From IMG/VR virus record IMGVR_UViG_3300014205_000174: 64,000 nucleotides of DNA, one strand, 5' to 3'. Of this stretch, positions 5,981 to 37,614 are shown one piece after another. The notes beneath the pieces were generated by a model. The model was not told where the DNA came from and ran no database searches. It saw nothing but the letters and a program-made list of their open reading frames with translations. The first letter of the stretch is position 1; each line of letters begins with the position of its first letter. Both the position numbers and the translations under genes were made by a program. Origin of the DNA: a virus (lineage: Duplodnaviria > Caudoviricetes).

Positions 5981-6508
5981 TTATAGTTTTATGAAATTCC
6001 TAACGAACATTCTAACTGGCACATACTCATCTATGTTTTTTAGCTTAAGATAAATATGTCCATTGTCCATCAAATATATGCCAGCCACGTTATGTTCGGT
6101 AAGTGCTTGCCAATCCTGGAATGGAACGTGATTAGGATATGTAGTAAAAGCAACTGCATCCCCTTTCCTGACTTCAAACGTATTTATTTCTACCAAGGGG
6201 AGCTCCTTCTCTATCTTAGGTGGTATACGCCAGTCCTTAATCTGATGGCAATTCCCAGTATTTTTACTCTTAGCAAATCTTGGCAGGTGGTCTGGTATTT
6301 TCCCATTATTACTTTTAAAACGCCTGCCACAAGCTGGGCACTCTACTATATATTTTTTACCGGGGGTGGCTTTGGGGGAATCCGAAAAGGTAGATTCAAG
6401 TCTTTTTATGGTAGAATTCATGCGGCCCGAGGCGGTATAGCCCAGCTTACCTGGTCTAAGGATATCTTCGCCTACTTTTACCCGCTTTATGCCGTTCTTG
6501 GTTTTCAT
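5981..6508 (-). CDS. Hypothetical protein with Zn-ribbon-like motif
   Basis: CPACGR...H...C. Confidence 0.6.
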   Translation of the reverse strand: MKTKNGIKRVKVGEDILRPGKLGYTASGRMNSTIKRLESTFSDSPKATPGKKYIVECPACGRRFKSNNGKIPDHLPRFAKSKNTGNCHQIKDWRIPPKIEKELPLVEINTFEVRKGDAVAFTTYPNHVPFQDWQALTEHNVAGIYLMDNGHIYLKLKNIDEYVPVRMFVRNFIKL

Positions 6509-6516
6509 AGCATTAT

Positions 6517-7023
6517 TTAAAAAGAATAATCGTGATATTCGTCTTTGACGCCCCAGAGGATATTTACTTTGCTGTATTGTTTCCTGATTTCAGTCTTACC
6601 GGGGATAACCACAGTCAACTCAACCCCGTCATTAGGGTAAAGCAGCTTATGGTCATCTGAATCGAACCATTTCGGGCCAATAGTTTTCGCATACTCTTCG
6701 GTGAACATAATTTTACTCACCTCTTTCCTCCAGGCACCCCATTTCCAAACTATAATTTCGTTGAACCCGTTCAGGATGGTGTATGCATAGTTTTGTGTTT
6801 CTGACATCCCGTTATTGTCAGTACGAACTGGCTGGTATTGCTGAATTACAACACGCTTTTTATCTTCAGACGCGCTAATAACCTCATATGCATGCCTGTC
6901 AGTCCATGACAACATAGTGCAGCCTGCACCAACCTGGGGCAATGTAGCATTATTGCCCATCATATAATTCATGAAAGAACCTGTTGTTGTGCCCGCTACT
7001 GACTTCTGCTGAAACTGTTTCAT
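6517..7023 (-). CDS. Conserved phage hypothetical protein
   Basis: P.VG.G.T...WTDR.AYEV motif; directly behind a sigma-54-type motif. Confidence 0.65.
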   Translation of the reverse strand: MKQFQQKSVAGTTTGSFMNYMMGNNATLPQVGAGCTMLSWTDRHAYEVISASEDKKRVVIQQYQPVRTDNNGMSETQNYAYTILNGFNEIIVWKWGAWRKEVSKIMFTEEYAKTIGPKWFDSDDHKLLYPNDGVELTVVIPGKTEIRKQYSKVNILWGVKDEYHDYSF

Positions 7024-7044
7024 ATATTCTGTTTCAATTGGTAG

Positions 7045-7060
7045 TGCAATTTACGTGCCA
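7045..7060 (-). promoter_or_regulatory. Sigma-54-type -24/-12 promoter
   Basis: TGGCACG-TAAA-TTGCA, ~22 nt before ATG 7023. Confidence 0.75.
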
Positions 7061-7134
7061 GAAATGTAAAAAAGGCCAGTCGGCACGCCTCTCGACTACC
7101 CGCACTATCATCACGCGCAATGTAATATATGGTT

Positions 7135-7752
7135 TTAATCCAATCCGAAAAACGTTTTGAAAACAAATGCAATAACACAAGTTATCAAGAGTACTAAAAT
7201 AACATGGAAGTTAATAAAAGGCAATTGAGCAATGAACATACCCAGAAACAAACTTATTGCAATGCAAAAACCCATAATCAACCGAAACTTGCTCCGGGTA
7301 TACACCACGCTGTCTGCGGGGACACCACCATCCTTAGAGGAAGATGGCAATGCCGGGGTGGCTGAGGCTGCTATCAATGTCTTTTCTTCTTCCGGCACCA
7401 GTAGGTCTAACGCATTGCCATAAGCATTGCGCTGCCCCTCGTAATACCAAGTATCGTCATTCCGACCAGTACCTTCTTTTTTAGCGCTTTCAAGCGCTTG
7501 ATTATATGAGGTACATGCCTCCAGCCATAATTGCGTCACCGCATCTCGCACTCCAGGCTCTGCGCTCCCCACAATCACTACGGAATCCATAACCATCAAT
7601 GGCCGTACCCACCACTTACTTAAATACTCTTGGTCACCCTGCGCAATGTCATCTATGCATTTCTGGGCAGCATCCTTTGTTAACCAACACTGGTTTGACC
7701 ACGCCAGTATATTACCGGTGCCCTTTTGCATTATCACATAAACTTGCTTCAT
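7135..7752 (-). CDS. Hypothetical protein with two C-terminal TM helices
   Basis: 205-aa ORF, hydrophobic C-terminus. Confidence 0.6.
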   Translation of the reverse strand: MKQVYVIMQKGTGNILAWSNQCWLTKDAAQKCIDDIAQGDQEYLSKWWVRPLMVMDSVVIVGSAEPGVRDAVTQLWLEACTSYNQALESAKKEGTGRNDDTWYYEGQRNAYGNALDLLVPEEEKTLIAASATPALPSSSKDGGVPADSVVYTRSKFRLIMGFCIAISLFLGMFIAQLPFINFHVILVLLITCVIAFVFKTFFGLD

Positions 7753-8657
7753 GTTGTCGGTGTGTTTTTATTTAAAAGATTAATGAGCGTTTGTTCCGGC
7801 AAATAGTGTGTGCACATAAATTCCTCCCCAGTATAATCCTGGCAAACGACCTTAATACGCCCATGACGTATCAACCTGCCAATATTAATATTATCACGGT
7901 TATCTATATTTATAGCCAAAACAATACCGACTGGCATGTTGCTTTTGTCTATTTCCAGCCAATTTATTTCTTTGTTTTGCCTGTACCATTCTACACCCTT
8001 TTCAAACCCGAGCCTTACGCAAGCCTTTTCATCGCCAGATATATGCCCTTGTATACTTTCCGCAAAATCGTTGCCTGCCCGAAGCACCTCTTTAAAGAAG
8101 GAATCCGCCACCTCATTCACTTCAGCAACCTTCTTCGGCTCTATTCGCAACACTATATCGGTTCCCGATAGCTTGGGCAGGTCTGCGTAATAATCGCCAT
8201 AGGATGGGAAAGCTCGGGCCACCATAACCCGGCAATCACCCTGGCAGTCTGCCCATTCTTCAATAAATTCCTTAGATATAGTCGGTATATTTTTCAGCGT
8301 ATTCAACGTGCTGTCATTAGTAGCTAATATTCTCTTATACGCAACGTAATTTTTGTGCAGAATAAAACTGCGGTCTTTTGAATAAAACCTATCATCTATC
8401 GGAAATTTTTTACCTACCTGAACTATCGTAGGTATGGTTTTGATTGTTTTTGAAGTGGGTATATAAACCCAGTCATTCTCCCGTATACTGCCATCATCGA
8501 CAATATACATAGTCAGTGGCTGCCATCCATCGTTAATAAAACTACTGGTAACGTTCCCGACAAAAACACCACATACGTTACGCACCAAATCGCCTATCTG
8601 CGGCAACTTTTTATTCTGCGGTTCCGTTATTACATCGACTGATTTATATAGCTCCAT
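7749..8657 (-). CDS. Phage hypothetical protein (paralogue family D)
   Basis: RILAT...IPTIS.EFIEEW resembles 32991, 34285 and 35207 ORFs. Confidence 0.6.
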   Translation of the reverse strand: MELYKSVDVITEPQNKKLPQIGDLVRNVCGVFVGNVTSSFINDGWQPLTMYIVDDGSIRENDWVYIPTSKTIKTIPTIVQVGKKFPIDDRFYSKDRSFILHKNYVAYKRILATNDSTLNTLKNIPTISKEFIEEWADCQGDCRVMVARAFPSYGDYYADLPKLSGTDIVLRIEPKKVAEVNEVADSFFKEVLRAGNDFAESIQGHISGDEKACVRLGFEKGVEWYRQNKEINWLEIDKSNMPVGIVLAINIDNRDNINIGRLIRHGRIKVVCQDYTGEEFMCTHYLPEQTLINLLNKNTPTT

Positions 8658-8659
8658 AA

Positions 8660-9172
8660 CTATGCTTTTTTGGGTATTCTTTTCCTTTTAGGTTTGCCGC
8701 TGGAAAATAGCATCTCGCTATCCGGTATCTTTTCCGGCTCCAGCATTTCAGACGCTGCAATCATTTCTTCAATTGGCGGCTCCTCATATTCCACAACCTC
8801 AATGGCCGCCAAAATATACACCCGCTTTTTTGTCCCCAGCGCCAACTGCTCTGCCTGCTTCTTTGCCGACTGACGAGAACCATGCTTGGCTGTAGGCGCA
8901 GAACCCCCTTCCACAAAAAGCATATGAAAGCTATCGCCTTCTATTTTCTCAATTGGCAAATCATGAGAACATACCGTGCCGACATACTGCTTATCAAATA
9001 CACGCGGTTGCCCTGCCTCCGCTTTGCCTGGCGCATGAAATAACAAGTGCGTTACAGTCCCGCGCGGCTCTTTCAATTTAACCATTTTAAGTGCAACAAA
9101 ATCATTTCCCTTGTCGGTGTGATTTACTTTGCTCTGGTCAATCTGTTTTAAGTTAATCAGTACGTTCTTCAT
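8660..9172 (-). CDS. Hypothetical protein
   Basis: 170-aa ORF in operon. Confidence 0.6.
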   Translation of the reverse strand: MKNVLINLKQIDQSKVNHTDKGNDFVALKMVKLKEPRGTVTHLLFHAPGKAEAGQPRVFDKQYVGTVCSHDLPIEKIEGDSFHMLFVEGGSAPTAKHGSRQSAKKQAEQLALGTKKRVYILAAIEVVEYEEPPIEEMIAASEMLEPEKIPDSEMLFSSGKPKRKRIPKKA

Positions 9173-11124: not shown

Positions 11125-11265
11125 AAGTGCTGCTGAGCAGCAAGACGGAGCACTCGTATAGTTACCTAAAAATAAGTTTCGTTTTTCCAATAAAGGATGA
11201 GTAGTAAAACAAATATAGTTAAACATTACGAAACTAATTCAATAAAATGTATTAAATTTGGTAAC

Positions 11266-12459
11266 ATGCAATTAGTTGAGCGACATATTTTTGTAGGCAA
11301 TAAGGCGATGGAGCAAATCTGTCACAATGCCGGTTTGTTGCAAAACTTCACTAATTACCATATCAAGCAAGCGGTCTTAGGTTACCAGGAGCGCTTTTCG
11401 GAATATGAGTTTACGGGACTATGCGCTGAGTTCAGCCAACCGGACTACAAGAATCTACCCGCACAAACTGCGCAGCAGGTTGTAAAGAAGGTATTTAAGA
11501 ATTGGAAAGGTTTTTTTGCGGCAATGAAAGCCCGTACAAAAGACCCTTCTAAATTCAAAGGAAAGCCTAAGTACCCCGGATATAAGAAGGGTAAAAAGCT
11601 GGCCCTTGTTACGTTCACGAGCCAGCAGATAAAAATAAAAGACGGATATATTCATTTCCCTAAAGCCACGAATATAGAGCCTGTCAAGACGCTGCATGAC
11701 AACATAGCGCAGGTGCGATTAAGTCCGCAAACAGGATGCATCATTGCCGAAGTTGTCTACGAGCAGCAAGAAGTTAAAGCCCCTGCCGATGAAAAGCTTT
11801 TTTTAAGTATAGATTTGGGGGTAAACAATTTAGCTACCGCAATCAGTAATACAGGCTTACCGCCTTTTATTATCAACGGGAAGCAGCTAAAATCAGTTAA
11901 TCAGTTCTATAACAAGAAGAAAGCAGAACTACAAACCCATATAGGCGGCAAAGGCGCATCCCGCCGCATTAATTTACTTACGTTCAGGCGTAACAAAATA
12001 GTTGAAGATTACCTGCATAAGACCAGTAGCTATATTGTTGACTACTGCGTAAAGAACAAAATCAGCATTATCGTCGTAGGGAAAAATAAACAGTGGAAAA
12101 CGAACATAAATATTGGTAAGGTAAACAACCAGAATTTTGTTCAGATTCCGCATGCGAAGCTAATTGGTAAATTAGCATACAAAGCGCAACTGGTGGGTAT
12201 AAAAATCGTGGAGCAGGAGGAGAGCTACACTAGTAAGGTAGACCATTTGGCGGGAGAAAAGATGGAGCATCACGAAAGGTATTCAGGGACAAGGGTGTCG
12301 CGCGGTCTGTTTAAAAGCGCTACAGGCAAAGTGCTGAATGCGGACGTAAATGGGGCCATAGGCATAGCGTTAAAATCAAATGTAGCTGACGAGTCATTCG
12401 TAAAAATGATAGTTAGTAGAGGCCTTGCGTTTAGGCCATGCAAAATTTGCTTTTGCTAA
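11266..12459 (+). CDS. tnpB: IS200/IS605-family RNA-guided endonuclease TnpB (no tnpA adjacent)
   Basis: MQLVERH start, RuvC-I SIDLGVNN, VVGKNKQWK, EESYTSK, RuvC-III NADVNGA; TAAATTTG -7 element at 11253-11260. Confidence 0.92.
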   Translation: MQLVERHIFVGNKAMEQICHNAGLLQNFTNYHIKQAVLGYQERFSEYEFTGLCAEFSQPDYKNLPAQTAQQVVKKVFKNWKGFFAAMKARTKDPSKFKGKPKYPGYKKGKKLALVTFTSQQIKIKDGYIHFPKATNIEPVKTLHDNIAQVRLSPQTGCIIAEVVYEQQEVKAPADEKLFLSIDLGVNNLATAISNTGLPPFIINGKQLKSVNQFYNKKKAELQTHIGGKGASRRINLLTFRRNKIVEDYLHKTSSYIVDYCVKNKISIIVVGKNKQWKTNINIGKVNNQNFVQIPHAKLIGKLAYKAQLVGIKIVEQEESYTSKVDHLAGEKMEHHERYSGTRVSRGLFKSATGKVLNADVNGAIGIALKSNVADESFVKMIVSRGLAFRPCKICFC

Positions 12460-25843: not shown

Positions 25844-26641
25844 TCACAGAAATGGGTTTTTATCGGTTGGGAATGGTTTAATTTTATGGATTGCGGCCCA
25901 TACCTTTGGCAGCAGTTTTTTTTCTTTTACCTGGGTGAAAAATTCCTTATCAATTAAGAAAAGTGCATTATTTAAGTTACCCACATCGACACCGCTGTCA
26001 CGAATAACAGCCATCTTCTGGTATGAACTAAGCGCTAAAAATGCCGAGATAGTGGATTGAATAGGCGTGTTCACTTCCGCTTTATCCGCACCCTCCTTCA
26101 GGCCCTCTTGCTCCTCCTTCATTCTACGACAAATCTCATCAAAGCCATCGAAAACACACTTCAACCATGTGGTTAGTTCTTTACATAGCGGCACATTTTC
26201 ATGGTCTTGGAATCTGCCTACATTTTGGCGATGAGCTACAATGGTGTAATCAAATTCACCTGCATCTACTGCACTTAAGCAGTCGTTCAAGTATTCAATC
26301 TCCTCTTCAGTTAAATCCTCTTCTTCTGCTAATAGCCTTTTTATTTCTTCTTCGGTTTCTGTTGGCGAGAAATCAGAACAAGTCTGAGTAGATGCGCTCC
26401 TTAGTTTTTCGCACCAATACCCATCACTTACATGCCCTTCCGCAGATGGATGGAATTCACGGCAAAATATCCAGTTTCCAAAATCACCGGTAACAGCCAG
26501 GATACCGTTAGTGTTTATGTATTTAATCGAATTACATATAGTTCCCGGCTTCTTCAGGTAATGGATAAGCAACCCCTCTTGTTCGGTCACCAAGACCTCG
26601 TGCTTACTAAAATCTACATCAGTGCGCTTATCTCCTTGCAT
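25844..26641 (-). CDS. Conserved phage hypothetical protein
   Basis: L.VTGDFG.WIF...Y..EKL motif. Confidence 0.6.
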   Translation of the reverse strand: MQGDKRTDVDFSKHEVLVTEQEGLLIHYLKKPGTICNSIKYINTNGILAVTGDFGNWIFCREFHPSAEGHVSDGYWCEKLRSASTQTCSDFSPTETEEEIKRLLAEEEDLTEEEIEYLNDCLSAVDAGEFDYTIVAHRQNVGRFQDHENVPLCKELTTWLKCVFDGFDEICRRMKEEQEGLKEGADKAEVNTPIQSTISAFLALSSYQKMAVIRDSGVDVGNLNNALFLIDKEFFTQVKEKKLLPKVWAAIHKIKPFPTDKNPFL

Positions 26642-27018
26642 ATTAGTTATTTAAAGTACGATTATTTTTTTACCATGTGTGATAGTGCGCATCATGCCTT
26701 AGTCCCACATTGGCATTAATTTTCTGCTGCAACACCCTTGTCAAAAACTTTTTTTCAACCATAGCATACGTCGCTGGCGATATACAAAAGTGCTCATTCT
26801 CATTCAGGGCTTTTTGCAGCAGCTCGTCATCGGTCAATGGCGTTAACTCCCTTTCCTGCCATTCAGGAACCGCTATAGGCCCTATCGGTGTTTTTGCTGT
26901 CAGCATTGCTTATAGTTGCTACTTCGTTGAAAATAAATAATGTTCTTTAGCTTATACACAATGCACCATCCAGATTCTGCATGTCCACGTGGTAACTCTT
27001 TTTGCTGTCTACATGCTA

Positions 27019-28035
27019 CTACGATGAAAAATACCGGAATCCACCCTCTGCATGCTTATTATCCCGGAACCACTCTTCCACCTGGTCGGTGAGGCCCTGT
27101 AGAGTAGTTGCATCGAGCGTACTGTACTGGCTCCAATCGGTCATGGCCATCATAGCGGACATGATAAGGTTTTTCACCTCTACTTCATGGAACCGCTCTG
27201 ATTTTCCTTTATCCTTGGCAAGTTTTTTGGCTGTAATTCTTATCGCAGGGCCGCTATCCGAAGAAATATCCATACCGGATGGGCCGGACGTCTTTGTGTT
27301 GTCTTTGCGGGTTGGGATATCATCATCGGCACCAAACAACATGAGCGCAGCAGATACGTTACCCGGCTTTCCTGCGGCTATCTTTTCTTTTTCAAAGTCG
27401 ATAGCATCCACTATCATCTTTTCAACCTCCGCAGGGGTATTGTTTTTCAGCATTTTTATTATCTGCGTTTCCGCTACCACATCCTCAATTATAAGGTTGC
27501 GCAATGCAGGCCCGGCAGTAAGCAGGCTAAAGCAATTCCTAACGTGCGTAATTGACTTTTTGCGCTTGTGGGCGATATCTTCCTGGCTATAACCCATTTC
27601 ACTAAGACGCGCATATACAACCGCCTCCTCAAGTATAGTATTAGGGACACCGCCGGTGTTTTCCTCCAACTGGCTAAACAGCCTTTCATCTTCACTCTCG
27701 GGATTATCAACGATTACACGGATGCGAAAGGTATCGGGATTAAGCAGCAGCCTCTCTATACCCAACTTAACGGCCAGGTAGCGCCTGTTCCCCTGCTTTA
27801 CCTTGAAGTTTTCCGAACCTCTTACGCGGTATACAGAAAGTGGCTTTAAAACTTTCCCGGCAGCAACAATGGAATACATCAACTCTTCTATATCCTTATA
27901 CTTTATGCGGATATTGTCTTCAGGGGCAAATATCAATTGCTTAAAAAGCACGTGCCATACATCCGTTCTTGGCGTTTTGGTTATTACGGCGGCAGTAGCC
28001 TGCTCTTCCGGTATCGTAGTTTGCATTTCCGACAT
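27019..28035 (-). CDS. ParB/Srx N-terminal domain protein with HTH
   Basis: NIR...IEELM.SI...G.VLKPL.V, G.RRY.A, EEA..Y.RL...G.SQEDIA. Confidence 0.8.
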   Translation of the reverse strand: MSEMQTTIPEEQATAAVITKTPRTDVWHVLFKQLIFAPEDNIRIKYKDIEELMYSIVAAGKVLKPLSVYRVRGSENFKVKQGNRRYLAVKLGIERLLLNPDTFRIRVIVDNPESEDERLFSQLEENTGGVPNTILEEAVVYARLSEMGYSQEDIAHKRKKSITHVRNCFSLLTAGPALRNLIIEDVVAETQIIKMLKNNTPAEVEKMIVDAIDFEKEKIAAGKPGNVSAALMLFGADDDIPTRKDNTKTSGPSGMDISSDSGPAIRITAKKLAKDKGKSERFHEVEVKNLIMSAMMAMTDWSQYSTLDATTLQGLTDQVEEWFRDNKHAEGGFRYFSS

Positions 28036-28076
28036 AAACTTGGTTTTGAATTTTTCGTTTGATTTTACTTAACATG

Positions 28077-28092
28077 CGCAAATAGCGTGCCA
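28077..28092 (-). promoter_or_regulatory. Sigma-54-type promoter
   Basis: TGGCACG-CTAT-TTGCG upstream of the parB-like gene. Confidence 0.75.
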
Positions 28093-28137
28093 TATTTTAA
28101 AATAACGTAAATAAATATTTATAGCCCTTTTGATGTT

Positions 28138-28153
28138 TGGCATAGAAATTGAC
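28138..28153 (+). promoter_or_regulatory. Sigma-54-type promoter (degenerate), divergent partner
   Basis: TGGCATA-GAAA-TTGAC upstream of ATG 28189. Confidence 0.45.
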
Positions 28154-28188
28154 ATGTTTATGATTATGAATCAATTTTCACAGTTTTT

Positions 28189-28431
28189 ATGGAACAGACA
28201 ATAGTAAATAACAACCAGAGTGCACCCAGCACTGAATTAATGAAAGCAAGGCTGGTTATGATAAATCAACTTAGTGCCGCCCAGGAGTGCACTGAGCGGT
28301 CGATAGCGCTTAATAAAATGGAATTCGTGAAGTACCTGCTTCAGAAGTTCCCGGACACAGGGGCCAGGATAAACGAAAGCGAAGAGTACAGCGAGTTTCT
28401 TACCAAACAACAGACTAACAACGGACAATAA
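28189..28431 (+). CDS. Hypothetical protein
   Basis: First gene of a three-gene + strand operon. Confidence 0.6.
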   Translation: MEQTIVNNNQSAPSTELMKARLVMINQLSAAQECTERSIALNKMEFVKYLLQKFPDTGARINESEEYSEFLTKQQTNNGQ

Positions 28432-28432
28432 T

Positions 28433-28705
28433 ATGGGCTTTATAATTAAATACCTGCCTGGTGGTGAACCGCTCCCGGATAAAGGAAAGGATTTTGTCTT
28501 AATGCAGAAAGCCTCTGGCCGGATTATTAATCCACCCGATGAATTCCAGGAAGGCCTGGTATGTATCCTGCATGACGAAGATACCGATAAAGCGGTATTC
28601 TGCTTCTCGGAAGGAGAGATGGCCTATTACCTTGAATACGTACACAAGCAAAAAACATGGTTAATCGTCCCTGATGCCGCTGAAATAGCCGTGGCTGGGT
28701 CATAA
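28433..28705 (+). CDS. Hypothetical protein
   Basis: Tightly spaced ORF. Confidence 0.6.
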   Translation: MGFIIKYLPGGEPLPDKGKDFVLMQKASGRIINPPDEFQEGLVCILHDEDTDKAVFCFSEGEMAYYLEYVHKQKTWLIVPDAAEIAVAGS

Positions 28706-28714
28706 TATTGCAGC

Positions 28715-29059
28715 ATGGCTACAGAAAGAAACATCATCGGTTATAAGTACAAGGTCATCGGCTCTGATGGACTGATTCCCGTTAACGCGAAGTACCTGCA
28801 TGAAGAGACAACCCGCAGGGATATAGACCTTGTGTCTATTGAATTCCTGGTAGGCCATGCTATTCTCGAGCCTGTATACGATACTTCCAACGAGAAAAAG
28901 GTCGAACCAGACGAAGAGCTTGTCATCCTAAAGGCAAAGCATGATATCTTGTGTGAACTCTGGGTTCCAGAGAGCTCCCATGATACCCATATCAAAATAG
29001 GCGAACTGGTTAGAAAATACGCATCCCAGATACTAGACAGAGGCGGCTCCATTATATAA
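28715..29059 (+). CDS. Hypothetical protein
   Basis: Ends 5 nt from the convergent tRNA-Tyr. Confidence 0.6.
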   Translation: MATERNIIGYKYKVIGSDGLIPVNAKYLHEETTRRDIDLVSIEFLVGHAILEPVYDTSNEKKVEPDEELVILKAKHDILCELWVPESSHDTHIKIGELVRKYASQILDRGGSII

Positions 29060-29063
29060 GTTG

Positions 29064-29149
29064 TGGGTGTGGCGAGATTCGAACTCGCTGTGTTTCTTAT
29101 GTACCGGTGTTACAGACCGGCGCAACTCCCCCGTCGTTGCCGCACACCC
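29064..29149 (-). tRNA. tRNA-Tyr (GUA)
   Basis: GGGTGTG/CACACCC acceptor, CCGGT-CTGTAAC-ACCGG, long variable region, TTCGAAT; CCA not encoded. Confidence 0.9.
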
Positions 29150-29176
29150 ATTTTTTTACATCATTCACTTACTTAC

Positions 29177-29267
29177 TGGCGGAAAGCAGTGCGCACGATG
29201 CACATTGACCAGCGGCCAACCATCAGTTTAGCAAACTGAGCCACCCCCTCCGGGTGATTTACTTTCC
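29177..29267 (-). tRNA. tRNA-Ser (GCU), 8/4-type cloverleaf
   Basis: GGAAAGTA/TGCTTTCC 8-bp acceptor, TCAGT-TTGCTAA-ACTGA, long variable arm, 4-bp T-stem GTGC/GCAC, ends GCCA. Confidence 0.8.
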
Positions 29268-29274
29268 TTACCTG

Positions 29275-29363
29275 CGGAAACGACGAGAATCCAACTCGTA
29301 CATCAACTCATCGCTGACCTCATGGTTTTCAAGACCACGTACCTCAGCCCATTGGGCGTTTCC
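29275..29363 (-). tRNA. tRNA-Ser (UGA), atypical D-arm and T-loop
   Basis: GGAAACG/CGTTTCC, GTGGT-CTTGAAA-ACCAT, ACGAG-TTGGATT-CTCGT, G73; D-stem does not fold canonically. Confidence 0.7.
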
Positions 29364-29373
29364 ATTTTTACTG

Positions 29374-29460
29374 TACCTGGGGCCGGCTTCGAACCGGCAC
29401 GACCATTACTGGTCACTGAGTTTTAAGCCCAGCGCGTGCTGCCAATTTCGCCACCCAGGC
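29374..29460 (-). tRNA. tRNA-Leu (UAA)
   Basis: CTGGG-CTTAAAA-CTCAG, long variable arm, GCCGG-TTCGAAG-CCGGC, A73. Confidence 0.92.
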
Positions 29461-29473
29461 AAATTATTCACTG

Positions 29474-29555
29474 TGGCAATTAAAGGATTCGAACCTCTAC
29501 ACCTCTCGGTACCGCTTTTTGAGTGCGGCGCGTCTACCAATTTCGCCAAACTGCC
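29474..29555 (-). tRNA. tRNA-Leu (CAA)
   Basis: CCGCA-CTCAAAA-AGCGG, TGGCGAAATTGGTAGACGC D-arm, TTCGAAT. Confidence 0.92.
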
Positions 29556-29563
29556 TATTTACG

Positions 29564-29645
29564 TGCCCTCCGAGGGGGTCGAACCCTCATGACCGAAGTC
29601 GCTGGAACCTAAATCCAGTGTGTCTCCCAGTTCCACCAGGAGGGC
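29564..29645 (-). tRNA. tRNA-Leu (UAG)
   Basis: GCCCTCC/GGAGGGC, CTGGA-TTTAGGT-TCCAG, GAGGG-TTCGACC-CCCTC. Confidence 0.93.
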
Positions 29646-29654
29646 ATAACCCAT

Positions 29655-29695
29655 AAACAAAAATCCCCGCTCGGAAGGAGCAGGGATTTTTGTTT
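29655..29695 (-). terminator. Attenuator terminator upstream of the Leu/Ser/Tyr tRNA cluster
   Basis: ATCCCTGCTC-CTTCC-GAGCGGGGAT then TTTTGTTT, between leader ORF and first tRNA. Confidence 0.85.
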
Positions 29696-29713
29696 TAATT
29701 GTATATTTTAGTT

Positions 29714-29788
29714 CTATACAGTCATAACATACCCTGCTCGTTCCGACAACGAGAGATATAATGAACTATATAGAGTTACTTGTTTCAT
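29714..29788 (-). CDS. 24-aa attenuator leader peptide MKQVTLYSSLYLSLSERAGYVMTV
   Basis: Codons 6-15 CTA TAT AGT TCA TTA TAT CTC TCG TTG TCG; contains antiterminator 29732-29746. Confidence 0.85.
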   Translation of the reverse strand: MKQVTLYSSLYLSLSERAGYVMTV

Positions 29789-29792
29789 CCTG

Positions 29793-29800
29793 CAAATGTA
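29793..29800 (-). promoter_or_regulatory. Bacteroidota housekeeping-sigma -7 element
   Basis: TACATTTG (TAnnTTTG), 4 nt before the leader ATG; context AAAAAGTATTACTACATTTGCA resembles that at 30265. Confidence 0.75.
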
Positions 29801-29839
29801 GTAATACTTTTTAAACGAAAAAACTTTATTTTACTATTG

Positions 29840-29915
29840 AGGCCAGGGAGAGAATTCAACTCTCGTTATATGCGTTTTGCAGACGCACCCCTATCACAAC
29901 ATTGGGTACCTGGCC
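29840..29915 (-). tRNA. tRNA-Cys (GCA)
   Basis: GGCCAGG/CCTGGCC, TGCGT-CTGCAAA-ACGCA, U73; T-loop TTGAATT atypical. Confidence 0.85.
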
Positions 29916-29926
29916 ATTATTATGTG

Positions 29927-29997
29927 CACGGGCGATAAGAATCGAACTTACCACAAACGGTTTTGGAGACCGCTTCGCCGCCTTAGCATGCGCCCGT
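29927..29997 (-). tRNA. tRNA-Trp (CCA)
   Basis: ACGGGCG/CGCCCGT, GCGGT-CTCCAAA-ACCGT, TTCGATT, G73. Confidence 0.88.
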
Positions 29998-30000
29998 ATG

Positions 30001-30071
30001 TGGTGCGTACAAGAATCGAACTTGTGTAGCTGGGTCTTCAAGCCAGTGACTAACCATTCATCCAACGCACC
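30001..30071 (-). tRNA. tRNA-Phe (GAA)
   Basis: GGTGCGT/ACGCACC, loop TTGAAGA, ACAAG-TTCGATT-CTTGT, A73. Confidence 0.85.
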
Positions 30072-30079
30072 ATGTAAAC

Positions 30080-30112
30080 AAAAAAAATCCCGCCGTGGTA
30101 TACCAGGCGGGA
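30080..30112 (-). terminator. Attenuator terminator upstream of the Phe/Trp/Cys tRNA cluster
   Basis: TCCCGCC-TGGTATACCAC-GGCGGGA then T8. Confidence 0.88.
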
Positions 30113-30134
30113 GGAGTATTAAACGAATACGCTT

Positions 30135-30209
30135 TTACACAATGATTCGCCCGCTGGTTACGTTACTAAACCAACAGAAAGTCGAAGTCATTGTTACAGT
30201 GTATCTCAT
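30135..30209 (-). CDS. 24-aa attenuator leader peptide MRYTVTMTSTFCWFSNVTSGRIIV
   Basis: Codons 11-14 TTC TGT TGG TTT; contains antiterminator ACCAGCGGG 30150-30158. Confidence 0.85.
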   Translation of the reverse strand: MRYTVTMTSTFCWFSNVTSGRIIV

Positions 30210-30264
30210 GATTTTTAAAAATTAAAGAAAATGCTCACAATAGCTGTGCTCAAATTCTCCAGTG

Positions 30265-30272
30265 CAAAAGTA
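30265..30272 (-). promoter_or_regulatory. Bacteroidota housekeeping-sigma -7 element
   Basis: TACTTTTG in AAAAAACATTACTACTTTTGCA. Confidence 0.75.
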
Positions 30273-30426
30273 GTAATGTTTTTTAATCAATCAACTATTT
30301 CACCAAATTTTATTTTTAAGCCGGATTTTTCTGAAATAAATTCACGCATCAACTCCCAAGACGACAACGCCCTCACCTTACCGTTTCGCTCTTTTCTTAT
30401 CCACTTAATTGTTGCAGGAATGAAGA

Positions 30427-30570
30427 CCGTTCTACAAAACCTATCCAAATCTATCCAAAGACAGGTTTGGTGTTTGTTTACTGTTTCACAGCGGGGCTAT
30501 GTAGCATTTCTGCTACAGAACTCCACGCTCCACAGTCTTTCACGGCAGAACTTGCCGCATAACCGCCTAT
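30427..30570 (-). mobile_element. Putative tnpB right end / omegaRNA region (IS607-like, ends ...GTAGAACGG)
   Basis: Follows and overlaps the tnpB 3' end; TGTAGCA-GAAA-TGCTACA hairpin; TTTGGATAG repeat; terminal GG. Confidence 0.5.
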
Positions 30571-31320
30571 CGGTTGTTTATCTTGTTTTTCTTTTTTCTC
30601 GTATTTATGCGCGTGCTTTACCGGGTACTGTTCCAGGTTCACGCTCGCAGTATTGTCTCGCTGGTGGTGGGTGTTGCATATATCGCAGTCCCACTCACGG
30701 TCGCTTAGCTTAAGGTTCTGGTTTATATGCCCGCAGTGGCTGCATAGTTTACTGCTTGGGAAGAACCTGTCGACTACCGTTATTTTACACCCATACCATA
30801 GTCCCTTGTATTCCAATTGCCTGCGGAACTCGTAGAAGCTCCCGTTGGCTATGTGTTTACTGAGGTTATGGTTCTTCAGCATGCCAGAGACATTCAAATT
30901 CTCAATAACTACCTCGCTGTGGTTTTTAGCAAGGTAGGTAGTCAGTTTATGAAGGCCGTCAAGGCGATGGTCGGAGATGTGCTTATGTATTTTAGCTATT
31001 TTATTGCACTGCTTCTTGTAGTTGCTACTCCTCGGCGCTTTATCGTCCTTGAGCAGCTTCCATACTTCCACTACCTCCCAGTCCATAATATCAGACGGAT
31101 ATATACCCATTGGCATCGGGTACAGACGCCTGCTTCCTGGTTGCCCAGGCGCATCCGGAGAAACCCACCAGTCGCCCATCATAGAACCAACAAGCCACAC
31201 CTGTTTTTCTACAGGCCCTGGGTGCATGCAATAGTCGATATAAAGCTGGTGGACTACGTCTGGCAGCTCCACCTTTATGGCTTTGAGATTCGTTTCTTCA
31301 GGTAGTTCTTTTACGAGCAT
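30478..31320 (-). CDS. Chimera: unrelated ~90-aa N-terminus fused to C-terminal half of TnpB
   Basis: Retains VVIENLNV (RuvC-II), FPSSKLCSHC..CDIC Zn finger and RDNTAS (RuvC-III); lacks N-terminal lobes and RuvC-I. Confidence 0.8.
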   Translation of the reverse strand: MLVKELPEETNLKAIKVELPDVVHQLYIDYCMHPGPVEKQVWLVGSMMGDWWVSPDAPGQPGSRRLYPMPMGIYPSDIMDWEVVEVWKLLKDDKAPRSSNYKKQCNKIAKIHKHISDHRLDGLHKLTTYLAKNHSEVVIENLNVSGMLKNHNLSKHIANGSFYEFRRQLEYKGLWYGCKITVVDRFFPSSKLCSHCGHINQNLKLSDREWDCDICNTHHQRDNTASVNLEQYPVKHAHKYEKKEKQDKQPIGGYAASSAVKDCGAWSSVAEMLHSPAVKQ

Positions 31321-31339
31321 GTTTTTATCTTATTAATTA

Positions 31340-31981
31340 CTACCGTCTTTTTTTTATTTTGGAAACTTCTATTTTAACCAAATCAAAGTTGTCGTCTTGC
31401 ATAAATAATGAATTTGCTTTAAACGCTTTTTTCATCATCGCTATATCAATGTAGTCCCAGTTAATATTTTCTAACTTATTTAGTATTATTACCGACTTTC
31501 CGGTAATTTTTTCTTTTACCGCTCTTTCGCACATGCCATTGAATATTACAGGCGCGCCCATTCTGGGGTCTCCACACAACGGGATAAGGGAAGAGGTGGC
31601 GTAAATCTCATCTGCATCTTTTACCGCCTGCCAGGTGCTTTCCAAGTTATGCCATGCGCGGTCAAGCACCTTGGAAAATACCCTGTCGACACATTCCAGC
31701 CCCTGCTCTTTTGCGAAATCCAACACCTCCCTTTGTGCGCTCCTGAACTCACTGGCATGTAAAATGTCTGATTCGATGTATATTCTTATTTTGATGCCGC
31801 TTTTAGCTTCGCTGGTATCGGCCTTATATTCACTGGTTGCCAGACATTCTTTACAGTTTGCCAGTTCGGGGGATACTGAGATTTCTTCATTGTCCTTATG
31901 CGTGTGAACGTTCTTGCCACATACTGATGTGTAAGTGTAATCGCCGTTGTAGCCAGTTCTTGAATAGTGTACGATTTTCAT
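31340..31981 (-). CDS. Hypothetical protein with N-terminal C/H motif
   Basis: H...CG...CKEC. Confidence 0.6.
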   Translation of the reverse strand: MKIVHYSRTGYNGDYTYTSVCGKNVHTHKDNEEISVSPELANCKECLATSEYKADTSEAKSGIKIRIYIESDILHASEFRSAQREVLDFAKEQGLECVDRVFSKVLDRAWHNLESTWQAVKDADEIYATSSLIPLCGDPRMGAPVIFNGMCERAVKEKITGKSVIILNKLENINWDYIDIAMMKKAFKANSLFMQDDNFDLVKIEVSKIKKRR

Positions 31982-32012
31982 GTTTTATTTTTATTACGCT
32001 TTATGTATACAG

Positions 32013-32792
32013 TTAGCTTATTCCATTTTGATAAAACACATGGTCTCTTGGCCATACCTGGTGGAATGATATGCGACCATCCTGATTCAACACGTTCACA
32101 TTTACATATCCAGGCAAGTCGCAGGTTGCTATATGATATTCTGCACCGTCTATGGCGTAGGCCTTACCTTTTATCAGGTAAATGTTTGCCGGTCTTATTT
32201 TTGTACGCCCAGCTCCTTTCCTGTAATAGCCATTGCCTATTTTGACCCTGTTAGCAATATCCTTCGCGGTAACCGCATCGGACATTGGCTCATGGCTAGC
32301 CTCCGTATACATCTCATGCATATCACGTATGCACTGGTGAAATTCCATTTTCCCTTTATTATTTATTGCGTTTATATTCACAAACCCAGGCAGTGAGCAG
32401 GAAACTCTATTGTATCTAGTTAAATCTTTAGCGTACAGTTTACCCTTTATCATATAAACACCCTTCTGTACAGAATCAACGGATTCCCTGCTGTTGCTTA
32501 TTGGGAAATAAGTACTCCCTACTTTTATTTTATTAGCTATATCCTGTTCCGTTACATTAACAGGCGCAGCTATTGAATTGTATTTATCTACGGCCTCCTT
32601 TCTCTGCATGTAATTAAATGGATACGCTTCAGGATTCGAGCTATTATGCACTACAACCTCAAGGTAGCATGTACCCTTCCATGGATTAGCAACAACGCAC
32701 AAATCCTTGTTTACCAACCCACGTGCAGATTGTATATAAGTGCGTACTTCTCCGGGGATATCGGTTATGTCTATTTTTTTTGGTGACGACAT
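32013..32792 (-). CDS. Hypothetical protein with internal duplication
   Basis: Two copies of DIAN..K.G..Y...Y.IKGK.YA.D...C.LPG.VN.N..N..G...FHQ. Confidence 0.7.
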   Translation of the reverse strand: MSSPKKIDITDIPGEVRTYIQSARGLVNKDLCVVANPWKGTCYLEVVVHNSSNPEAYPFNYMQRKEAVDKYNSIAAPVNVTEQDIANKIKVGSTYFPISNSRESVDSVQKGVYMIKGKLYAKDLTRYNRVSCSLPGFVNINAINNKGKMEFHQCIRDMHEMYTEASHEPMSDAVTAKDIANRVKIGNGYYRKGAGRTKIRPANIYLIKGKAYAIDGAEYHIATCDLPGYVNVNVLNQDGRISFHQVWPRDHVFYQNGIS

Positions 32793-32990
32793 TATTTTTG
32801 ATTTTTATCTGTATCAGGAATTACTTTTTCTACTTTAATGATGGAGCAACCGGTATTGAATCTCTTAAACTTACTTCTGGCCCAGTTTTCGGATGTGGCC
32901 GCAATCCGGTAAGGCTTAACCGCAGGCACACCGTATTTTTTATAAAACACGTCGTAATCCGGGTAGGTATTCTCTTTCTTTTCAGGAGCT

Positions 32991-33572
32991 TTATTTTGCA
33001 TGCTTTTCTTTTATCGCACGAATTGCCATATCCCTTAGCTGGTCTAAAATGACGCTGGTCTTATACTTGCCGCCAGATAGTACTCCCACTTCAGTCAAGG
33101 CATCCTGGTATATCTGCTCTACTTCAGCGAGCTCCTTATTCATGGCGGCAACATCATCGGGCAATTCACTTAAATCTTCACACCCCACCTCTACTTCAAT
33201 AGTATCCCCATAGTTGCCGCCTCTGGCAATCCACGATTCTACATCACGTAAACTTATTGGAGACAAATCCTTATGTATAAACCCGTATGACGCCACTACT
33301 TTTTCCCACGCTGCATATATTATAGGTAGATGCCCACCTACTCGCACACGCTTCTTTACGGTCAAAACACCATTCTGCATGCCATAATACCAGTGACCTT
33401 CCATCACCTGGGCCTCTATATCAACTAGCACCATATTCATAGCCTGGTTACCAAGGTCATGCTTGCCAGCTATTGCCGGTTTACCTCCGACCATTATAAT
33501 ATCACCCGCCCTATTGGTAATATTCTCATAGCTCATAGGTACGAGCCGAACATAATACCTTTTTTTAGCCAT
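32991..33572 (-). CDS. Phage hypothetical protein (family D)
   Basis: KVVASY...LSPISLRDVESWI. Confidence 0.65.
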   Translation of the reverse strand: MAKKRYYVRLVPMSYENITNRAGDIIMVGGKPAIAGKHDLGNQAMNMVLVDIEAQVMEGHWYYGMQNGVLTVKKRVRVGGHLPIIYAAWEKVVASYGFIHKDLSPISLRDVESWIARGGNYGDTIEVEVGCEDLSELPDDVAAMNKELAEVEQIYQDALTEVGVLSGGKYKTSVILDQLRDMAIRAIKEKHAK

Positions 33573-33592
33573 TGCTTGTTTTTTACCTGTAG

Positions 33593-33608
33593 TGCAATTT
33601 GCGTGCCA
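33593..33608 (-). promoter_or_regulatory. Sigma-54-type promoter
   Basis: TGGCACG-CAAA-TTGCA ~21 nt before ATG 33572. Confidence 0.78.
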
Positions 33609-33622
33609 AATTAGTTTTGCAA

Positions 33623-33796
33623 TCAGTTAGTGAGCGAATATTCTACCGTAGCATATGGCCGGTCATTAGGCCCTATAATCAATGACCCAGAGACCATACC
33701 TGCATGTATCTGCTCTACGACAACCTTACATACGTTTTCTAAGGTCAAATCGCTACCAGGCTCAATATTCATTTTTATTGTTAAAATATTTTCCAT
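33623..33796 (-). CDS. 57-aa hypothetical protein (absent from the ORF track)
   Basis: MENILTIKMNIEPGSDL...EYSLTN, exactly fills the gap between two sigma-54 motifs. Confidence 0.55.
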   Translation of the reverse strand: MENILTIKMNIEPGSDLTLENVCKVVVEQIHAGMVSGSLIIGPNDRPYATVEYSLTN

Positions 33797-33821
33797 TATC
33801 TGTTATTCTTTCCCTATATAG

Positions 33822-33837
33822 AGCAATTCCCGTGCCA
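33822..33837 (-). promoter_or_regulatory. Sigma-54-type promoter
   Basis: TGGCACG-GGAA-TTGCT at the main strand switch. Confidence 0.78.
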
Positions 33838-33873
33838 AATAAAAAACTAAGTTTTTATTCTCTACCTATAATC

Positions 33874-33889
33874 TGGCATGCAAATTGCA
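33874..33889 (+). promoter_or_regulatory. Sigma-54-type promoter
   Basis: TGGCATG-CAAA-TTGCA, divergent partner of 33822. Confidence 0.75.
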
Positions 33890-33928
33890 TTACAGCCAAT
33901 ACATTCACAGTTTAGTAAATTTCATTTT

Positions 33929-34222
33929 ATGCCAGCATATGCATATCCAATAATAATTAAGAGGGAGCCGCAATTGGTTAGATTTCAGAAAGAAATAGAA
34001 CTAGGTAGCGGGAGCGATGGCGTGCTGACATTAGCCAAACTCCGTGAGTATGGCGTTACGGAAGAGCACGCATTTTGGACGCGCGAAACAGATGAAGGGC
34101 TGTATAGCACGACTCTTTTGATAATATCAGGGGCGAGGCTGGAAACACCCGAAGAGTTAAAAATAAGGGTTGAGAAAGAAGAGGCCTATATGGCTGAATA
34201 CAACAAGAGAAAGGCTATATAA
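33929..34222 (+). CDS. Hypothetical protein
   Basis: ATG 33929 lies downstream of the promoter motif. Confidence 0.6.
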   Translation: MPAYAYPIIIKREPQLVRFQKEIELGSGSDGVLTLAKLREYGVTEEHAFWTRETDEGLYSTTLLIISGARLETPEELKIRVEKEEAYMAEYNKRKAI

Positions 34223-36402: not shown

Positions 36403-37614
36403 ATGAACATAACCATATTCGGCAAAGAAATAATAGATGAATCGACCATCATCCAGTTGCAAAACTGCATGGTAGATAATGCAATAGGCGTAATTACCGC
36501 CGACGCCCATAAGGGCTACTCCATGCCGGTTGGCGGGTGCATAGCCTACAAGGATATGATATCCCCGTCAGGCGTCGGATATGATATCGCATGTGGAAAT
36601 ATGGCCGTGCAAACCAATGTACTGGCCTCAGACATTAATGCCAGCCATGTAATGAATGAGATTGCACGACTTATATCTTTTGGTGTGGGCCGCCCAAACA
36701 ATGAGCCGGTAGACCATGAGGTGCTTGATAAGATATCTCAATCGAACTTTGCACCACAGCGCAAAATGGCACAGTTGGCCAAGAGCCAGTTGGGTACCGT
36801 CGGAAGCGGGAATCATTTCGTAGATATTTTCAAAGACGAAAATGGCTTAATCTGGATAGGCGTACACTTCGGCTCCCGTGGCTTCGGCCATAAGACAGCG
36901 TCAGGGTTTATGTCCATGGCCCAGGGGCTTGATTTCGATGAACGTGCCAAAGGCGAGTCCATGGATGCGCCACCTACGCTTTTCGCCACCAATACAGAAC
37001 TGGGGCAAGCTTATATAGACGCTATGAACCTTTGCGGGGAATACGCCTATGCGGGCCGGGAGACCGTTATCAATAAAGTATTGGGCATACTGGGTAATCC
37101 GGAAGTTACTTTCTCCGTACACAACCACCATAATTTCGCATGGAAGGAAAACCACTTTGGTGAAGACTACTGGGTAGTACGAAAAGGATGCACACCTGCC
37201 TTTCCAGGCCAACGAGGTTTTATCGGGGCCAACATGCGCGACATATCCGTTATCGTGGAAGGTGTAGATACGGAACAATCCCGTAATGGCCTGTATTCTA
37301 CCGTACACGGAGCGGGCCGCATTTTATCGCGCACACAGGCTGCCGGAAAGAAGAAGTGGGTCAAGGGGGCGGATGGCAAAAAAAAGCCCGTAACGGTTGG
37401 CAAGGGCGTTATTGACTTTGACCAGGTACGTCACGAACTCACAGAACGCAATGTTGAATTACGCGGAGCTGGTGCCGATGAGGCCCCCGGATGTTACAAG
37501 AACCTGTCAGACGTCTTAGCCTACCAAGGAGACACAATCAAGATACTGCATAAGCTTACGCCAATTGGCGTGGCCATGGCCGGAGGTAATGAATTTGACC
37601 CTTATAAAGACTAA
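36403..37614 (+). CDS. rtcB: RtcB family RNA ligase
   Basis: DAH.GY..PVG, VGYDIACG, QLGTVGSGNHF, HFGSRG.G, HHN, RKG.T, HGAGR..SR, DEAP.CYK. Confidence 0.95.
   Translation: MNITIFGKEIIDESTIIQLQNCMVDNAIGVITADAHKGYSMPVGGCIAYKDMISPSGVGYDIACGNMAVQTNVLASDINASHVMNEIARLISFGVGRPNNEPVDHEVLDKISQSNFAPQRKMAQLAKSQLGTVGSGNHFVDIFKDENGLIWIGVHFGSRGFGHKTASGFMSMAQGLDFDERAKGESMDAPPTLFATNTELGQAYIDAMNLCGEYAYAGRETVINKVLGILGNPEVTFSVHNHHNFAWKENHFGEDYWVVRKGCTPAFPGQRGFIGANMRDISVIVEGVDTEQSRNGLYSTVHGAGRILSRTQAAGKKKWVKGADGKKKPVTVGKGVIDFDQVRHELTERNVELRGAGADEAPGCYKNLSDVLAYQGDTIKILHKLTPIGVAMAGGNEFDPYKD

Follow-up and report, generated by a model that had tools for sequence, protein, structure and literature searches.

A predicted ribosome-mediated attenuator with a Phe-Cys-Trp-Phe leader peptide ahead of phage genes for tRNA-Phe, tRNA-Trp and tRNA-Cys

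In this study, we describe a short leader region of a phage in which ribosome-mediated attenuation probably turns on the tRNA operon that follows it when Phe, Cys or Trp codons are decoded slowly. The region lies on the minus strand of a 64-kb stretch of DNA, referred to here as the window, which was analysed as a whole. The elements of the attenuator, their geometry and their conservation in related phages are read directly from the sequence; from these we infer that the leader is translated, that transcription and translation are coupled in the host (probably a member of the Bacteroidota), that transcription terminates at a T8 run, that read-through responds to ribosome stalling, and that the circuit responds in this manner in vivo. 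The window comes from a 211-kb contig which carries genes for a DnaB-like helicase, ParB, RtcB, an endolysin, HNH and TnpB-family proteins, and the element is most likely a large phage that infects Bacteroidota.

The leader ORF and the codons within it carry the first part of the evidence. Between the promoter motif and the tRNA genes, the ORF at 30209-30135 (minus strand) is the sole ATG-started ORF on that strand, with 24 codons running from the ATG at 30209 to a TAA at 30137-30135. Its codons 11-14 (30179-30168) are TTC TGT TGG TTT, a Phe-Cys-Trp-Phe block which uses both Phe codons, one Cys codon and one Trp codon, and these three amino acids are encoded nowhere else in the ORF. The position of the leader, the composition of the block and its being the only source of Phe, Cys and Trp residues had been put forward in a first-pass annotation made from the sequence, and the sequence bears out all three together with every coordinate given there. 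Runs of four codons that specify only Phe, Cys and Trp and include all three occur 9 times among the 127,978 six-frame positions of the window; therefore, a chance occurrence of such a block on the right strand, in the ~40 codons (~120 positions) that precede the genes for just these three tRNAs, has a probability of ~0.01. This figure leaves aside that the block is in frame with an ATG, that the geometry fits, that a second matched leader lies 400 nt downstream and that relatives conserve the arrangement. Textbook attenuators contain 2 to 7 tandem regulatory codons. As Cys and Trp are each represented by one codon, the sensitivity of the Phe-Cys-Trp-Phe attenuator may be low.

The tRNA genes behind the terminator are tRNA-Phe (GAA; 30000-30071), tRNA-Trp (CCA; 29926-29997) and tRNA-Cys (GCA; 29839-29915), all on the minus strand, and their identity and order (Phe, Trp, Cys) are as had been annotated. 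The Rfam tRNA model finds tRNA-Phe with 53.3 bits, whereas tRNA-Trp has only a weak Rfam clan match and tRNA-Cys, which has an atypical T-loop, is not reported by this model at E values up to 1; the poor scores of the tRNA-Cys and tRNA-Trp genes count against the attenuator reading. Farther downstream, tRNA-Ser (UGA; 29276-29363) and tRNA-Ser (GCU; 29177-29267), both on the minus strand, were missed by ARAGORN and have unusual T-arms, and both align with tRNA-Ser genes which ARAGORN does call in two of the relatives described below (L005 and L011). The tRNA-Cys and tRNA-Ser(UGA) genes share a G at the usual conserved C of the T-loop. Altogether, the nine tRNAs of the window (29063-30071, minus strand) serve Phe, Cys, Trp, Leu, Ser and Tyr, which are exactly the six amino acids that have U-starting codons. 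The tRNAs for U-starting codons normally carry an i6A37-type modification.

The putative expression signals are of the Bacteroidota type. The primary sigma factor of this phylum has the consensus TAnnTTTG at -7 and TTTG near -33 (PMC7366714). A promoter-like motif is present at 30278-30265 on the minus strand, with an exact -7 element (TAnnTTTG at 30272-30265); the -33 position reads TTGA in the window and TTTG in the relatives. The motif lies within a block of 16 nt that recurs in the next unit (29806-29791), and of the three TAnnTTTG motifs found on the minus strand between 28900 and 30500, two precede the two leaders. No such motif was found between the terminator and the tRNA genes or within the tRNA cluster; constitutive expression of the tRNAs from an internal promoter had been named in the first-pass annotation as one finding that would refute attenuation. 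A sigma-70 or sigma-54 promoter was considered and rejected, as there is no -35/-10 match and no GG/GC spacing. The predicted 5' untranslated region (30262-30210, minus strand) is A/U-rich, ~53 nt long and lacks a Shine-Dalgarno sequence. Genes of Bacteroidota are without Shine-Dalgarno sequences and prefer A-rich leaders (PMC7366714). A Shine-Dalgarno-like motif precedes none of the 55 long ORFs of the window, and the regions upstream of these ORFs contain 44-67% A at positions -10 to -16. A leader without a ribosome-binding site is thus the norm in this genome and is no argument against its translation.

The RNA between the leader codons and tRNA-Phe can form three alternative pairings. The codon block overlaps region 1 (30178-30169), which is the 5' arm of a 1:2 hairpin formed with region 2 (30159-30150, minus strand) through 10 bp including three G-U pairs (-11.3 kcal/mol); the earlier proposal that the Trp/Phe codons take part in such a hairpin holds, but it understated the size of the helix. 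Region 2 can pair instead with the 5' arm of the terminator (region 3, 30112-30103, minus strand) in an antiterminator of 8-9 bp with one bulge, the 9-nt segment 30158-30150 being complementary to 30112-30103 with one bulged C, just as had been anticipated. Folding places the 3' arm of the terminator (region 4) at 30098-30088 on the minus strand, and the terminator hairpin (30112-30088; -17.6 kcal/mol, z = -4.25 versus shuffles) consists of a 7-bp G+C-rich outer stem and a 3-bp inner stem with one bulge. It is followed by the T8 run (30087-30080, minus strand), which ends 8 nt before tRNA-Phe (30071); the outer stem, the T run and this spacing had been described in the same terms. The leader as a whole, from the ORF to the terminator, is also more stable than its shuffles (z = -4.8), and in its free state the leader RNA adopts the 1:2 hairpin together with the terminator. 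In these folding models the 1:2, 2:3 and 3:4 pairings are mutually exclusive, which is the classical attenuator layout. When the complete RNA is folded, the terminator belongs to the most stable structure wherever the ribosome is placed. As in the trp attenuator, a kinetic switch is therefore required, and antitermination would depend on kinetic coupling of ribosome and polymerase, which is presumed for this host group; this dependence weighs against the attenuator reading.

The effect of ribosome position was modelled by folding the transcript cut just before region 4, with the ribosome footprint masked and the RNA 5' of the ribosome masked as well. A variant of the mask that let the RNA behind the ribosome re-pair produced spurious long-range pairings in the relatives' version and was replaced. 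With the A site at Phe11, Cys12, Trp13 or Phe14, 8 of the 10 nucleotides of the terminator arm are paired with region 2; this falls to 6/10 at codon 15, 4/10 at codon 16, and 0/10 at every position from codon 17 to the stop. The suggestion that one leader acts as an OR gate over three tRNA species is thus reproduced in silico, as a ribosome on any one of the four codons has the same predicted effect. Among 300 dinucleotide-shuffled versions of the upstream RNA, not one showed an on/off contrast as large as that of the window's leader, while the same shuffle test on the relatives' version of the Phe/Cys/Trp attenuator gave 58 of 300, which is not significant. In six further attenuators from the window and its relatives, loss of the antiterminator coincides with the end of the matched codon block.

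On this basis we propose the following course of events. Transcription would start from the TAnnTTTG promoter, and the 24-codon leader would be translated while RNA polymerase advances. When Phe-, Cys- and Trp-tRNA are plentiful, the ribosome would pass codon 14 and cover region 2, allowing the terminator with its T8 run to form, so that transcription would stop short of tRNA-Phe. When at least one of these tRNAs is in short supply or uncharged, the ribosome would stall on the Phe-Cys-Trp-Phe block; because this block is itself region 1, the stall would melt the 1:2 hairpin and leave region 2 free. Region 2 would then pair with the 5' arm of the terminator once that arm is made, the terminator would be blocked, and the polymerase would read into tRNA-Phe, tRNA-Trp and tRNA-Cys. 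Since the products are the tRNAs themselves, the circuit would be a negative feedback that matches tRNA supply to decoding demand, and since the tRNAs made would relieve the stall, it would amount to a homeostat for decoding capacity. Candidate natural triggers are amino-acid starvation, decay of host tRNAs after shut-off, and cleavage by tRNA-targeting defences.

The relatives of this phage were reached through protein similarity. Public phage and plasmid records contain no close relatives by DNA, and by protein they yield only distant DnaB and ParB matches. No relatives were returned by scans of IMG/VR for ParB and for the leader, the latter both as its exact sequence and as a degenerate pattern, nor by scans of metagenomes and species genomes with a ParB profile; the degenerate pattern gave two matches in metagenome contigs, both of which were rejected as chance because they lie inside coding sequence and are without tRNAs. 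The relatives used here are metagenomic contigs with ParB homologues of 55-59% identity (about 57%; L001-L011), to which two contigs reached via a neighbouring protein were added (L015 and L016). Three distant ParB representatives (P0011-P0013) are uninformative on attenuators because their contigs are without tRNA genes. A homologous attenuator is found ahead of tRNA-Trp, Phe, Cys and Cys in L005, ahead of tRNA-Phe, Trp and Cys in L008, and ahead of tRNA-Trp and Phe in L001. In an alignment of the Phe/Cys/Trp leaders, conservation is seen at the opening codons, at the regulatory block together with region 2, and in both arms of the terminator; within the leader, the four-codon block is conserved best. 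The peptide otherwise differs between the relatives and the window, as do the order and the copy number of the tRNA genes; the leader ORF has 27 codons in the relatives versus 24 in the window, the 5' region after the promoter motif is 17 nt versus 53 nt, and the terminator stem is 13 bp versus 9 bp. The relatives keep the antiterminator in another register, and in L005 it is a helix of 9-13 bp which is gone one or two codons past the last Phe codon. Few compensatory changes can be seen because only two diverged lineages of the Phe/Cys/Trp attenuator were found. In L001, L002 and L003 the Cys codon is kept and no tRNA-Cys gene was found behind the leader, which counts against the proposed match of codons and tRNAs. 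The proteins encoded upstream are not homologous, being of 213 aa in the window and 232 aa in the relatives.

The Phe/Cys/Trp attenuator does not stand alone. A sister unit lies 400 nt downstream on the same strand (29806-29063), in which the same promoter block (29806-29791) is followed by a leader, a terminator and genes for three tRNA-Leu, two tRNA-Ser and tRNA-Tyr. The sister leader (29788-29714) is a 24-codon ORF with ten consecutive Leu, Tyr or Ser codons, and runs of eight or more such codons occur only three times in the whole window. These two are the only units of this kind within the 64 kb. The sister attenuator (29813-29656, minus strand) gives a sub-threshold match to the Rfam Thr_leader family (31.7 bits, with a cut-off of 55; E = 0.007), and an ORF of 103 aa downstream of tRNA-Tyr has no database match.

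In the relatives there are three further tRNA operons, each with a promoter motif, a short ORF and a terminator. The operon for Pro, Asp, Asn, Thr, Gln, Gln and His is preceded by a leader with 17 consecutive codons drawn from exactly these six amino acids, a set whose frequency is 0.268, so that such a run has a probability of ~2e-10 per position. The relatives' operon for three Leu, two Ser and Tyr has a leader with a run of 10 (set frequency 0.183), and between lineages these Leu/Ser/Tyr leaders vary in the order of their residues and keep their composition. The operon for Lys, Val, Arg, Met, Arg, Met, Gly, Gly, Glu, (Met), Ile and Ala has a leader with a run of 9, in which codons and anticodons match nearly one to one. 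Between them, the four tRNA sets of the relatives serve every one of the 20 amino acids. The ATG stands exactly 2 nt after TAnnTTTG-CA in three of the four leader types (L001, L005, L008 and L011), a spacing that suggests leaderless translation of these three; the Phe/Cys/Trp leader is the only type with a 5' region. In L008 a 615-aa ORF takes the place of the Leu/Ser/Tyr unit, together with ~770 nt of sequence that is non-coding and looks structured (6291-8912); of the tRNA genes of this unit only tRNA-Tyr remains, with no leader seen.

Other explanations of the same elements have to be weighed. It is rather unlikely that the hairpin is simply a leaky terminator of fixed strength, with a constant ratio of leader RNA to tRNA precursor and with translation of the ORF having no effect on termination. 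The folding of the whole RNA to the terminator minimum whatever the position of the ribosome is what such a terminator would give, yet this would leave unexplained why codons and tRNAs match in seven attenuators of four kinds, why the block ends exactly where the ribosome begins to cover region 2, and why both region 1 and region 3 find a complement in region 2. It is distinctly improbable that stalling is sensed and the output is something other than intrinsic termination, for instance protection from RNase or Rho, or a leader RNA acting in trans. The terminated leader RNA would be ~180 nt long and well structured, as its z-score given above indicates, and there is a precedent in the trans-acting small RNA rnTrpL, which derives from an attenuator (PMC6614838); the simplest reading is nevertheless termination, given the canonical terminator, its T8 run and the conservation of a pairing that competes with it, and the sequence indicates no other effector.

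The remaining two possibilities concern the origin of the elements. A short TnpB / Cas12f-like ORF (280 aa, with OrfB_IS605 and TNB domains; 31320-30478, minus strand) lies 270 nt upstream on the same strand, and another TAnnTTTG motif is located after its stop codon, so that the hairpin could be thought to end a unit made of this gene and its RNA, with the tRNAs transcribed from a constitutive promoter of their own. We regard this as very unlikely, since the gap between the T run and tRNA-Phe is just 8 nt and neither this gap nor the cluster contains a promoter motif, since relatives without the TnpB gene retain the promoter motif, the leader and the terminator, and since every tRNA operon is preceded by the same layout. 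It is scarcely credible, finally, that the ORF arose by chance and that the reading Phe-Cys-Trp-Phe only reflects an RNA hairpin arm under conservation. The block does form the 5' arm of the 1:2 hairpin, so that RNA structure alone could conserve it; against this stand the low chance expectation calculated above for the Phe/Cys/Trp block alone, the fit between each of the other three leader types and the tRNAs behind it, for which the chance probability falls as low as ~1e-10, and the sister Leu/Ser/Tyr leaders, which reorder their residues and keep their amino-acid composition. Ribosome-mediated attenuation of the tRNA operon remains the reading that we favour.

Among known systems, the element resembles the E. 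coli leaders trpL, hisL, pheL and leuL, with which it shares a short leader ORF with regulatory codons in region 1, competing 1:2, 2:3 and 3:4 hairpins, an intrinsic terminator with a U run, and the principle that region 2 is freed when the ribosome stalls and covered once it has moved on. The translatable ORF, the codon cluster, the adjacent terminator and, in silico, the exclusive pairings and the stall geometry that define the trpL/hisL/pheL/thrL class are all present, whereas the target genes are not those for biosynthetic enzymes or aminoacyl-tRNA synthetases typical of the class but for tRNA-Phe, tRNA-Trp and tRNA-Cys. The trpL class regulates biosynthetic enzymes; here the regulated genes are tRNAs. 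The phage leader also differs from this class in sensing three amino acids through one or two codons each, and in being located in a phage with putative promoter and translation signals of the Bacteroidota type. None of the Rfam leader families for Trp, Phe, His, Thr and Leu matches 30080-30272 at E values up to 1.

Leaders that mix the codons of several amino acids are well established: in thrL (Thr and Ile codons) and in the ilvGMEDA and ilvBN leaders (Leu, Val and Ile) shortage of any one amino acid relieves termination. The OR-gate logic is the same, but thrL and the ilv leaders combine the amino acids of one pathway, whereas in the phage leader the set follows from which tRNA genes the operon contains; for the sister units, leader and tRNAs correspond down to the isoacceptor level. 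In the E. coli pheST attenuator, the pheM leader with its Phe codons controls a synthetase gene; this is the closest case with respect to regulating a component of the translation apparatus, except that the output there is the synthetase and in the phage it is the tRNA itself, which would close the feedback loop on tRNA abundance. Attenuation of operons for amino-acid and aminoacyl-tRNA synthesis has been surveyed (Lopatovskaya et al. 2010, cited in PMC4833913). T-boxes are likewise transcription antitermination devices that respond to the state of a specific tRNA, but they bind uncharged tRNA directly, without translation, and control synthetase or amino-acid genes, whereas in the phage the signal would be read by the ribosome. 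A T-box or other riboswitch was rejected as an explanation, as there is no T-box Rfam match at E values up to 1 in 26000-34000. In mycobacteria, leaderless short ORFs encoding poly-Cys are reported to be Cys-responsive attenuators (bioRxiv 10.1101/834739). They share with the phage group a short sensing ORF and the leaderless translation suggested for three of its leader types; the output there is Cys metabolism genes, and the Phe/Cys/Trp leader of the window differs in having a 5' region of ~50 nt.

No description of leader-peptide control of tRNA genes was found in the literature, in which coverage of subscription journals was incomplete. A leader-peptide switch on tRNA genes would be the first classical attenuation of the adaptor molecules themselves, and its feedback would close on decoding capacity and not on amino-acid supply. 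It would also show regulatory coupling of transcription and translation in a phylum without Shine-Dalgarno-led initiation, and it offers compact, programmable "codon sensors" for Bacteroidota. To our knowledge, nothing is known of how phage tRNA expression is matched to need. Phage tRNA genes are usually viewed as constitutive helpers in codon usage or as replacements for tRNAs cut by defence systems (PMC11555353, PMC12409363). A wider idea, which we put forward only tentatively and hold to be doubtful, is that the attenuators together form an array of sensors for tRNA depletion, with each operon on only when its own codons are decoded slowly, and that RtcB and RNA ligases belong to the same module. 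If this were true, the four gated operons of the relatives would partition the tRNAs for all amino acids among themselves, the array might respond to decay of host tRNAs or to anticodon-nuclease defences, for example, and RtcB (36403-37614, plus strand) with the relatives' RNA ligases would make up a demand-driven module that sustains translation against host defence.

Several genes near these operons deserve mention. The relatives have genes between or inside their tRNA operons (L005 3534-4565 and 2795-3292, L008 1862-2899, L015 1391-2888), of types that include RNA ligase, RNase H, HNH endonuclease and an HTH protein, and the RNA ligase genes together with the RtcB of the window look like a tRNA repair theme. 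In the window, the TnpB-like gene directly upstream of the attenuator is an insertion absent from the relatives, and its guide RNA may be encoded in the 200 nt that follow its stop codon. The window has two TnpB-family genes of full length, at 11197-12459 (plus strand) and 43440-42130 (minus strand). The DnaB of the relatives (L001 from 19986 onward; L005 11039-12256) is 1303 aa long and includes intein and LAGLIDADG domains, and in L005 and L006 an AcrVA2-like protein is encoded beside ParB.
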